Shown: positions 6,222-9,200 of the stretch, in pieces
Layout of the letters: every line of letters begins with the position of its first letter
How positions within the stretch are numbered: the stretch's first letter is position 1
Source of the DNA: Malacoraja senta
Lineage: Eukaryota
NCBI GenBank assembly: GCA_038087875.1
Contig: CM075993.1
Location: forward strand, 9,240,001 to 9,304,000
DNA length: 64,000 bases
Reading direction: 5' to 3'
Notes under the pieces: generated by a model
Databases searched by the model: none
What the model was told of the DNA's origin: nothing
Seen by the model: only the letters and a program-made list of their open reading frames with translations
Made by a program: the position numbers and the translations under genes

Positions 6222-9200
6222 CTGGTGAATACACATTTAGCTATCTCTTAAACATTATTGGCAGAGTAAACTTTCCAACTTCATCCGATTGGTCTTATTT
6301 CCTACAGTTTCTCTGAACATATCTCTATTACTTTTCATAAGAAAACTAATATCTCATTAAAAATGTTAGATAATACAAACACAGACAATAAATTATATTG
6401 TGCATCATGAGAAGAGTTTCGTCAAAATGTTTTCCTTGTGCCTTCATTTCAATTCATGATTAATACTTAATATTTAAATAATAATTTGCAGATAAAGTTT
6501 ATTTCTTGGTACACTGACAATGCTTAGTTATTTGCTTTTAAACTTGTACATTATCATGTATACTTTTTGAAAGTTACATTATCTTTAGCTCATCTTATTC
6601 TACCACATGGTAACCAAATGTACTAACAATAATTGGAATAGGGCTGAACTACATAAACAATCATTTAACTGCATAAATGAGGCACTGCAAACTGATCAAG
6701 TCAGAAGATTCAAAATACAAGGGGAATATTGAGCAACAATATTCACAGCACAAGTTTGATTTATAAAGATCCACTTACTTCGGATCATTTAAAAATATCT
6801 ATTCTTGTTGACGCAGCACAGAAAACATTCATAATTACAGTAAACCCTCACTACAACAGAGCGGTCACGGTTGTGCAGCAGTAGAGTTGCTGCCTTACAG
6901 CGAATGCAGCGCCGGAGACCCGGCTTCGAGTGCTGTCTGTACGGAGTTAGTATGTTGACTCCATGACCTGTGTGGGTTTTCTCTGAGATCTTCGCTTACC
7001 TCCCGCACATGGAAAGACTGTTTGGTTCCTTGGATGGAGTTGAGGGGGAGGTAAAGGAGCAGGTGTCGCATCTCCTGCGGTTGCAGGGGAAAATACCTGG
7101 GGAGGGGGTGGTTTTGGTGTGAAGGAGCGAATTGACCAGGGAGTTTCGGAGGGAACGGTCTCTGTGGATAGCAGAAGTGGTGGAGATGGGAAGATATGGC
7201 CAGTTGTGGGATCCCTTTGGAGGTGGCAAAAATGTTGGAGGATTATATGCTGTTTGCGATGGCTGATGGGGTGGAAGGCGAGGACAAGGGGGACTCCGTC
7301 CTTGTTACGAATGGGGGGAGGGGGAGTAAGAGCAGAGCTGCGGGATATCGATGAGTGGCGAGGACCCCTTCCGATAGAAAAAGGACCCGGAACTCGTTGA
7401 GGTGGGGGCGGAGGGGAACAAAGGTGAGGCCTCTGCTGAGGACCGTTCCATGTCAGAAAGGGGGAGGTTAGGGGGGATGGTGAACACACGGCAAGGGTGG
7501 GGGTTGGGGTCGGAGGAAGGCAGGTGAGTAGATGGAGGCTGAGGCGATGGTGGGGGGGGGGGGGGGGGGTGTTGGTGAGGACTCCTTCCGATAGAAAATT
7601 GGTGAGGACTCCTTCCGATAGATAATTGTAGTTTAATAGGCTTCGTAAAATTAGTCCTAGTTGGTGTAGGATGGTGTTAATGTGCAGAGATCGCTGGTCT
7701 GCGCAGACCCAGTGGGCCGAAGGGCCTGTTTCCGCGCTGTATCTCTGAACTAAACTATAGAGGGAGGAATGGTGTCCGTTATTACCATTAGTCTGCTTTC
7801 ACAGAGTACGGCGTTATTATTATTATTATTATATGTAGTGGAAACTAAGTACTGCAGGTGATGGCTAATACACAAAAGGACACACGATGCTAGAGTAAAG
7901 GGCCTATCCCACTCGGGCGTCATTTGCGCGTCCCACAGGTGGCGCGCGAAGATTTTGTACATCCCAAAAACCCGGGGCACCGCGCGCGACACTGCCTACG
8001 TCACCACGCGCGCATCACGACACGTAAATTATGTCGCGTAAATTACGCGCAAATGACGCCCAGGTGGGACAGGACCTTAACTCAACGGGTCAGGCTGCAT
8101 CGTCAGGAGAGCGTGGATAGGTGACTTCGGGACCCTTCTTCAGACTGATCCAGTCCACTGAGTTACTTATAATTTCACGTTAAAACTAGGCGTCAATGGT
8201 GCTGGTCTGCACCAGCAAGCTCTTCTTCACCAGCCACCGCACGGTCCGGTTGATAGGGCTGTTGTGATTGCTCATGTTGTAGCCCTTGGCCATCAGCTCT
8301 TTCTTCAGGCCGCTGCCATTGACAAGACACGCTCCGTCGCTGTGGGGCTCCCCCCTCTCACCAGCTGTTGCTTCTTCCTGACAACTGTCGCTTTGACGCT
8401 CCCCACTCCACCGCACCCTCGTCCTTCTCCCCTGCAGTGGCTAACATCTTCCAATGTGGAATATGACAGCGACACCAGGCGGAGGAGAAGGAGGCAGTAG
8501 AGGCCAAGAGGACAGGGCAACGGGAAGACGAGGAGGTCGCAGCGATGGACCAGGGAGTGGAAAAAGCAGTAGCTTACGCGAAGGGAGGGAGCCCACGGTG
8601 AATGAGTGCATCCTGTCGTTGGTAGCGGCCTGAAGGGGCTACAACATGACCCACAACAACAGCGCGTCAAATGGACTGTGTGGTGGGTGAAGAATGGCTC
8701 ACTGGTACACCTTACAAGTCGGGGATGGCGTCAGAAGCCAGGGTTGTAGGCGGCTGGGGAGGTGGTGTTGGCAGATCAATCTTTAACCAAAATCTGTTAT
8801 AAAGGGGTCTCGCTGTTAAAGAGGGTTTACTTTCATAACTGTGAAGGATCATGTATTAAGAGGAGCTGAAGGGTCATGCAGATAAGAATATCGCCCCTCA
8901 ACAACCCCACGTAGAAGTGACAAAGCAGCCTCCGCTGACAATTTCCACAATAGAAATCCCATGTTTATACTTAATTTATAACTGATATTGGAATCAGTCT
9001 TTTGTATTTATAAATCATAGAATCATTAGAAACATCTAGTTTTATGGAAAGGAGGCAAATCACCTGATCCTTTTGATTCAATTGATCCTTTTAAGATATT
9101 CTGTAAATCTGGGGAATTCTGGGAAGCAATGAAGTGATCCAATAATAATTGATTTGAGGTTTAAAGATCAGAATCTCTGGCCACATAATAATTCATGCAT

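Follow-up and report, generated by a model that had tools for sequence, protein, structure and literature searches.

The window, by which we mean the whole stretch of 64,000 nucleotides of Malacoraja senta DNA analysed here (assembly GCA_038087875.1, contig CM075993.1, positions 9,240,001 to 9,304,000 of the forward strand), carries on its minus strand, at 6114-20464, a gene for an NKCC-type SLC12 cation-chloride cotransporter, the best PDB relatives of which are SLC12A2. At least five exons can be recognised, with frames at 20171-20464, 19791-20093, 15869-16093, 10087-10248 and 6114-6236. Between two consecutive exons of this gene, upstream and downstream respectively within this frame (10087..10248, minus strand, Pfam SLC12 positions 32-72, E 1.1e-8; and 6114..6236, minus strand, Pfam SLC12 positions 69-106, E 2.1e-12), lies an intron, and in this intron sits a DNA element of about 2 kb at 6838-8832, which is the subject of the present analysis. 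A preliminary description, made from the letters alone, had proposed that this element possesses inverted termini of the Tigger type and holds captured pieces of a linker-histone H1 gene; it overlooked the location in the SLC12 intron, the presence of about 1.2 kb of nested repeats and an inverted second copy of the H1 sequence at 8457-8710 (plus strand). Elsewhere the window contains two LINE-like copies, namely a long, possibly young one at 52907-56496 (plus strand), whose endonuclease and reverse-transcriptase frames reach 383 codons, and an AT-rich one at 23814-25908 (minus strand) with a reverse-transcriptase frame of 405 codons.

Ends, class and inner anatomy of the element

The left end of the element consists of a TA (6836..6837, the left target-site copy, read from the sequence) followed, from 6838, by CAGTAAACCCTC, the pogo-type start of a terminal inverted repeat (TIR) of about 22-24 bp (6838..6860, plus strand), which was recognised by inverted-match comparison and by its match to pogo_NA. 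The right TIR occupies 8809..8832 (minus strand); here the inverted match to CAGTAAACCCTC at 8821-8832 agrees in 11 of 12 bases and has no TA behind it in the window. When 2000 pairs of 80-base stretches were drawn at random from the window, only 6 contained an inverted match of this length. At the same locus in two further organisms, B and C (runs X3 and X6), five extra bases behind 8830 make up a complete TIR with its TA, such that the terminal base and the TA lost in the window are kept in the orthologues; the target-site duplication is thus seen on the left in the window and on the right only in organisms B and C. Right after 8832, moreover, the summed contig depth falls from 6-15 times that of the flank to about 1.3-1.9 times, which is the single-copy level. 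Since the orthologues in organisms B and C have both the complete TIR and the TA, and since depth falls after the TIR, the inverted termini first noticed at 6838 and 8832 are those of a real TA-flanked element, the right tip of which was lost in the lineage of the window. At 0.55, the GC content of 8150-8832 exceeds that of the flanking sequence (0.29 and 0.35).

The TIR of the window equals that of the pogo_NA MITE, listed with its TA target in Table 1 of PMC3845634, in 10 of 12 bases, and typical pogo elements have TA targets and TIRs of up to 40 bp (PMC7386202). All the features of a non-autonomous element of this type, that is, a TA target, a short TIR beginning with CAGT and the lack of a transposase, are present: no transposase family was detected in the six frames of 8162-8799 or in five frames of 6898-7798, and no transposase partner for the element was identified. 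On these sequence features we assign it to the pogo-type non-autonomous DNA transposons; the Tigger family proposed initially is a candidate inside pogo, where the family would have to be set by the clade and domains of a transposase (CENP-B_N, HTH_Tnp_Tc5, DDD spacing). The pogo-type MITEs pogo_NA, Emigrant and Wujin likewise have a TA target and a short TIR (<40 bp) beginning with CAGTA, are devoid of coding capacity and measure several hundred bases, whereas gene cargo, such as the H1 sequence carried here, is not described for them in the parts of the two sources on which we draw (PMC3845634, PMC7386202).

Much of the present length is secondary, as about 1.2 kb of the element's 2 kb consists of later, unrelated nested repeats and the remainder amounts to roughly 800 bp. 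The larger insertion (6861..7757, plus strand), which we take to be SINE-like and which lies outside the original element, is delimited by repeat matches within the window and by very high depth. At about 7015-7560 its sequence is broken by a fragment of a G-rich repeat; the head of the insertion aligns to a copy at 16380-16580, its middle (7070-7225) to 60546-60702 and its tail (7626-7745) to 16262-16379, and its last bases (7746-7757) combine very high contig depth with AT-rich loose ends. The segment 7758..7850 (plus strand), with a TTA microsatellite, is likely the left inner part of the element, an assignment made from its place between two mapped insertions and with an approximate boundary to the next repeat. 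The latter is a short common repeat (about 7851..8150, plus strand, start approximate), which repeat comparison finds at four further places in the window, and the same comparison places inside it a MITE at 7899-8077 with TAA on both sides. A second, longer copy of this TAA-targeting MITE lies at 46191-46750. The right subterminal part of the element (8711..8808, plus strand) is repeated elsewhere in the genome, its depth being 5-16 times that of the flank in all four of the runs considered below.

The linker-histone cargo and its palindrome

Arm A of the cargo (8201..8454, minus strand) is a decayed fragment of an H1-variant gene, the nearest donor being XP_078280407.1, a 'histone H1.5-like' protein of the skate Rhinoraja longicauda. 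By tblastn (E 5e-16) residues 7-62 of this protein align at 8454-8308 and residues 72-109 at 8314-8201, the former, N-terminal block being absent from the query with which the protein had been found; the peptide identity is 54-63%, and a frameshift alignment scores 181 compared with at most 43 in 30 shuffles. The two peptides quoted in the preliminary description can both be read from the minus strand, though not in one frame: the 13-residue peptide at 8346-8308 and LKKEL...LLVQT at 8308-8204. All eight PDB matches obtained with the cargo (E 0.007-0.02) are H1. A phmmer search over 1.84 billion proteins gave six matches, of which four are H1, with XP_078280407.1 as the best at 62% identity, and two are bacterial STAND/TPR proteins that were discarded as chance. 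A profile of the variant clade described below matches 4 of the 3206 frames of the window, all four in the two arms. The likeness to H1 that had been noticed by eye is thereby borne out, although not by the match to Pfam Linker_histone that had been suggested as a check: none of the six frames of 8162-8799 matched to E 1. The donor itself scores E 2.5e-15 in the same comparison, and the ESM Atlas, with a best value of 0.86, gave no family lead for H1. Chance likeness is ruled out by the tblastn result together with the shuffle-tested frameshift alignments.

In a phylogenetic tree arm A groups with XP_078280407.1 (support 95/90), albeit as a long branch of odd composition, and canonical H1, with alignment scores of 77-90 as against 193, is ruled out as the donor, such that the earlier suggestion of a divergent H1 variant is sustained; the variant may, as was suggested at the same time, be a germline one, a class marked by gonad-restricted expression. 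The kinship of arm A, together with the repeat content, fits a window taken from a skate. The clade to which XP_078280407.1 belongs comprises 17 proteins, nine of them recorded from sharks and eight from batoids. These proteins have arginine-rich tails and stand apart from canonical H1, with a support of 100/98 relative to two outgroup rows. XP_078280407.1 is one of four clade paralogues located on a single skate contig of 32.8 Mb, a number that comes from a non-exhaustive word-index search. The literature searched yielded no study of these shark and ray proteins, and the clade is apparently uncharacterised.

As judged from these comparisons, the cargo derives from the 5' half of the gene for a divergent elasmobranch H1 variant and spans the N-tail to near the wing, the C-terminal tail being absent. 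Arm A has in common with the clade proteins residues 7-109, including the variant-specific N-tail, in keeping with the tree, and the copies in the window differ from these proteins in the lack of the start region, of 12 codons, of the wing end and of the C-terminal tail. In arm A the 12 codons, which belong to the globular domain, are replaced by 2 bases, consistent with a frameshifting deletion of 34 bases at about 8309, the size and microhomology of which rest on the protein alignment rather than on donor DNA. Both arms show the frameshift, the missing codons and stops. The cargo is unable to encode H1 because of the frameshift, the 12 missing codons and the absent C-terminal tail. An intact or functional H1 gene can be dismissed, there being no Linker_histone match and no single open frame with a whole winged helix and a basic C-terminal tail. 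Word-index searches of arm A against longer proteins and of the donor against shorter proteins each gave 0 of 29 candidates, and hence no annotated protein from any copy of the element was found.

What had been taken for separate captured pieces is indeed H1-derived, but is a single fragment present twice, head to head, in a palindrome of ~500 bp. Arm B (8457..8710, plus strand), the inverted and more eroded copy, equals arm A in 92 of 118 aligned core bases (78%, and lower in the N-tail) and, in its own frameshift alignment to XP_078280407.1, scores 75 compared with at most 48 in 30 shuffles. The arms align outward from 8453 and 8457 around a loop of 3 bases (8454..8456), the centre of the palindrome, which is also apparent in the predicted folds; the arm-to-arm score of the core was reached by none of 500 shuffles and that of the N-tail by 2 of 500. 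Arms A and B have in common the exact deletion junction GCGGCCTGAAG, and arm B has suffered extra losses in the form of a further 17-base deletion and small indels. The 26 differences between the arms are distributed over codon positions 1-3 as 11/40, 5/40 and 10/38 (third-position excess, p 0.31), and 12 of them are CpG-type changes. Capture of two different functional paralogues is ruled out by the common junction and the lack of a third-position excess. These two features and the CpG-type changes argue, at the level of sequence, for one captured fragment that was duplicated as a palindrome and subsequently underwent neutral decay.

Fold-back priming at a broken end yields a near-zero spacer, and the spacer of 3 bases would point to such priming here, the H1 piece likely having been duplicated by fold-back synthesis. 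The order of events may accordingly be pictured as capture, then the 34-base deletion, then the fold-back duplication. The ancestral element would likely have captured one 5'-half piece of the H1 variant, and this could have happened by template switching during repair or replication, through the FoSTeST or gap-filling routes (PMC8277862).

Copies elsewhere and the age of this one

The extent to which these sequences are repeated was gauged from the contigs of four of seven public runs placed on 7700-9200, runs X1 and X2 being from organism A, X3 from organism B and X6 from organism C; the window itself could come from X1, which is hence not to be counted as independent. Expressed relative to the flank, and bearing in mind that contig depth summed in this way does not measure copy number and that genuine H1 genes may contribute to the peak at 8210-8260, the depth across the four runs is 45-270 times for the core of arm A with 50 bases beyond it, 5-46 times for the variant-specific N-tail of arm A, 0.8-3.4 times, that is, near single copy, for the centre of the palindrome (8465-8566), 5-108 times for the core of arm B and 5-16 times for the right end, arm A being about 10-17 times more repeated than the latter. 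Paralogous contigs, about 80-83% alike, span the deletion junction with 2 gap letters (X3 records 21 and 22; X6 record 31), and because they do so the deleted form of H1 must be repeated in the genome. Non-H1 inner sequence is connected to H1 sequence by a joint, 8167-8294, in three of the four runs. At 8714 there is a variant, flanked by 30-43 letters to either side, in 15, 9, 22 and 18 contigs of the four runs, and since these contigs cover both sides, the end of arm B is tied to the right subterminal part. At 8359-8417 one paralogous contig in each of the four runs skips 57 bases of the N-tail of arm A; a copy with this 57-base deletion is common to all three species. The pattern of the deletion junction was found in none of the metagenome contigs and none of the viral contigs, and plasmid sequences gave no match. 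An 18-base inner motif that occurs at 13 loci was abandoned, all 13 being chance matches with neither TIR nor H1.

We consider it probable that the locus preserves a decayed, pogo-ended element with a palindromic H1-variant cargo that was captured once and spread in trans, and that it belongs to a multicopy family of Pack-TIRs, elements whose two TIRs enclose 100-5000 bp of host sequence (Tan et al. 2021, PMC8277862). The transposase for this spread would likely have been supplied in trans, and the H1 piece and the TIRs would have been mobilised together. The H1 piece may accordingly lie between the same TIRs at other loci; no paralogue was seen whole, and no paralogous contig running from a TIR into the H1 piece was among the matches listed. 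The chances are about even between two readings of the paralogues, one in which both of their arms map best on the better-kept arm A and one in which most copies are one-armed and the palindrome is local. Because repetition is far lower at the right end than in arm A, and the centre stays close to the single-copy level, the palindrome may be peculiar to this locus or to a small subfamily.

The excess of arm A over the right end and the near-single-copy centre are at the same time what favours another history, in which the H1 piece belongs to a separate repeat family and came into this one TIR copy through gap filling or as a nested insertion, with a palindrome that arose locally and a Pack-TIR that is single-copy. 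Most animal Pack-TIRs are single-copy gap-filling products (PMC8277862), and the element has received other insertions. We nevertheless deem this history unlikely, since paralogous contigs join H1 to non-H1 element sequence on both sides (8167-8294; 8714) and there is no poly(A) at either arm end. Retrocopies, furthermore, usually lack the 5' part, unlike the present piece, which lacks the 3' half of the gene.

The depth itself could, in principle, be due to real histone H1 gene clusters, the cargo being then a lone H1 pseudogene in a TIR copy. The peak at 8210-8260 does coincide with the part of the H1 fold that is best conserved, and rays have large H1/H2A/H2B/H3 clusters (bioRxiv 10.1101/2025.06.08.657570). 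This explanation strikes us as very improbable, given that the variant-specific N-tail is raised over the flank as well, that paralogous contigs bridge the deletion with no sizeable gap, and that no more than four proteins of the variant clade came up for one skate species in the non-exhaustive search mentioned above.

The copy in the window is not a recent one. An orthologue of the element is present at the same locus in organisms B and C and is, therefore, common to three species. Between organism B and the window 29 of 459 bases are changed in the element and 8 of 414 in mostly flanking sequence (p 0.0012), which corresponds to 6.3% as against 1.9%, or about three times the rate, in this one species pair; organism C differs from the window in 35 of about 850 bases overall. 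No sequence constraint on the hairpin stem is visible in the former pair, in which the element changes faster than the flank. Sharing by three species, the nested insertions, the damaged right end and the fast divergence rule out present-day activity of this copy, such that the earlier idea of a captured H1 in the course of amplification holds in so far as pieces of this kind are repeated in the genome, and finds no support as regards amplification today. Because of the faster divergence, the nested insertions and the damaged end, we regard the copy as a fossil devoid of visible constraint, likely a neutral one, and as presumably without function.

A function has nonetheless to be considered at the level of RNA, as one long hairpin is predicted on both strands (z -10.3 and -11.6, 20 shuffles each), and the position between two exons implies that it would be contained in the SLC12 pre-mRNA. 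The palindrome might then be a working source of hairpin RNA, in this intron and in other copies, with small RNAs acting on the donor H1-variant genes, much as in maize, where cross-talk of donor genes with captured fragments through siRNAs is described (PMC8616336). This seems quite improbable to us, for the identity of the two arms does not exceed 78% in the core and is lower in the N-tail, the divergence of the element outpaces that of the flank, Rfam has no matches in the window, and with a peptide identity of 54-63% to the nearest donor the small RNAs would match poorly. Improbable, too, is the larger scheme of a skate-wide family with hundreds of palindromic intronic H1-variant copies, the predicted hairpins of which would give rise to small RNAs directed against donor linker-histone genes. 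Were it true, it would provide a case of a vertebrate transposon hairpin targeting a chromatin gene, whether it served the host for regulation or helped the family to spread by counteracting silencing.

Comparison with known captures

In its layout the element corresponds to the Pack-TIRs, in that a host-derived stretch, here about 510 bp of H1 DNA, lies between two TIRs (6838 and 8832). For the parental locus, which in a Pack-TIR has no tie to the TIR element, the candidate is the gene of XP_078280407.1, recognised at the protein level in another skate. In the survey of PMC8277862, as far as drawn on here, TcMariner is a common carrier of Pack-TIRs (115 of 370) and multicopy cases tend to have GC-rich cargo. 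The survey was restricted to young cases, with 90% identity to the parent, and counted four multicopy cases in 100 reference genomes, which makes multicopy capture of genes by TIR elements rare in animals; the only row matching 'shark', that of the elephant shark, which is the one cartilaginous fish covered, has 0 Pack-TIRs, and the word 'skate' is absent from the survey. The surveyed Pack-TIRs are young, whereas the cargo described here is old, histone-derived and doubled as a palindrome. On account of the peptide identity of 54-63% it is unlikely to have the DNA identity of at least 90% to the parent that served as the cut-off.

The closest parallel as regards the cargo is provided by hAT transposons of Dothideomycete fungi, which have captured histone H3 (Dhillon et al. 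2019, PMC6710886) and thus likewise hold a histone coding fragment in a TIR transposon. Amplification has left hundreds of dead copies of the H3 fragment, each element carrying one or two. These fungal elements, however, are 9.5 kb long, have a transposase domain, carry a core histone and were killed by RIP, and a palindrome is not among the features described in the sections of that paper cited here, whereas the element in the window is short, non-autonomous and of pogo type, carries a linker-histone variant and has undergone decay of the CpG type.

No description of this element was found in the literature searched, and it may already be catalogued in Repbase or Dfam. TcMar elements have expanded in skates and rays (PMC12361510); if the proposed history is true, skates would add to the record of such captures an old and amplified Pack-TIR with histone cargo, which would fit this expansion. 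The fold-back cargo would represent a clean and datable fossil of a template-switch duplication. On a more practical level, many such copies could confuse both the annotation of H1 genes and the mapping of reads in skates.
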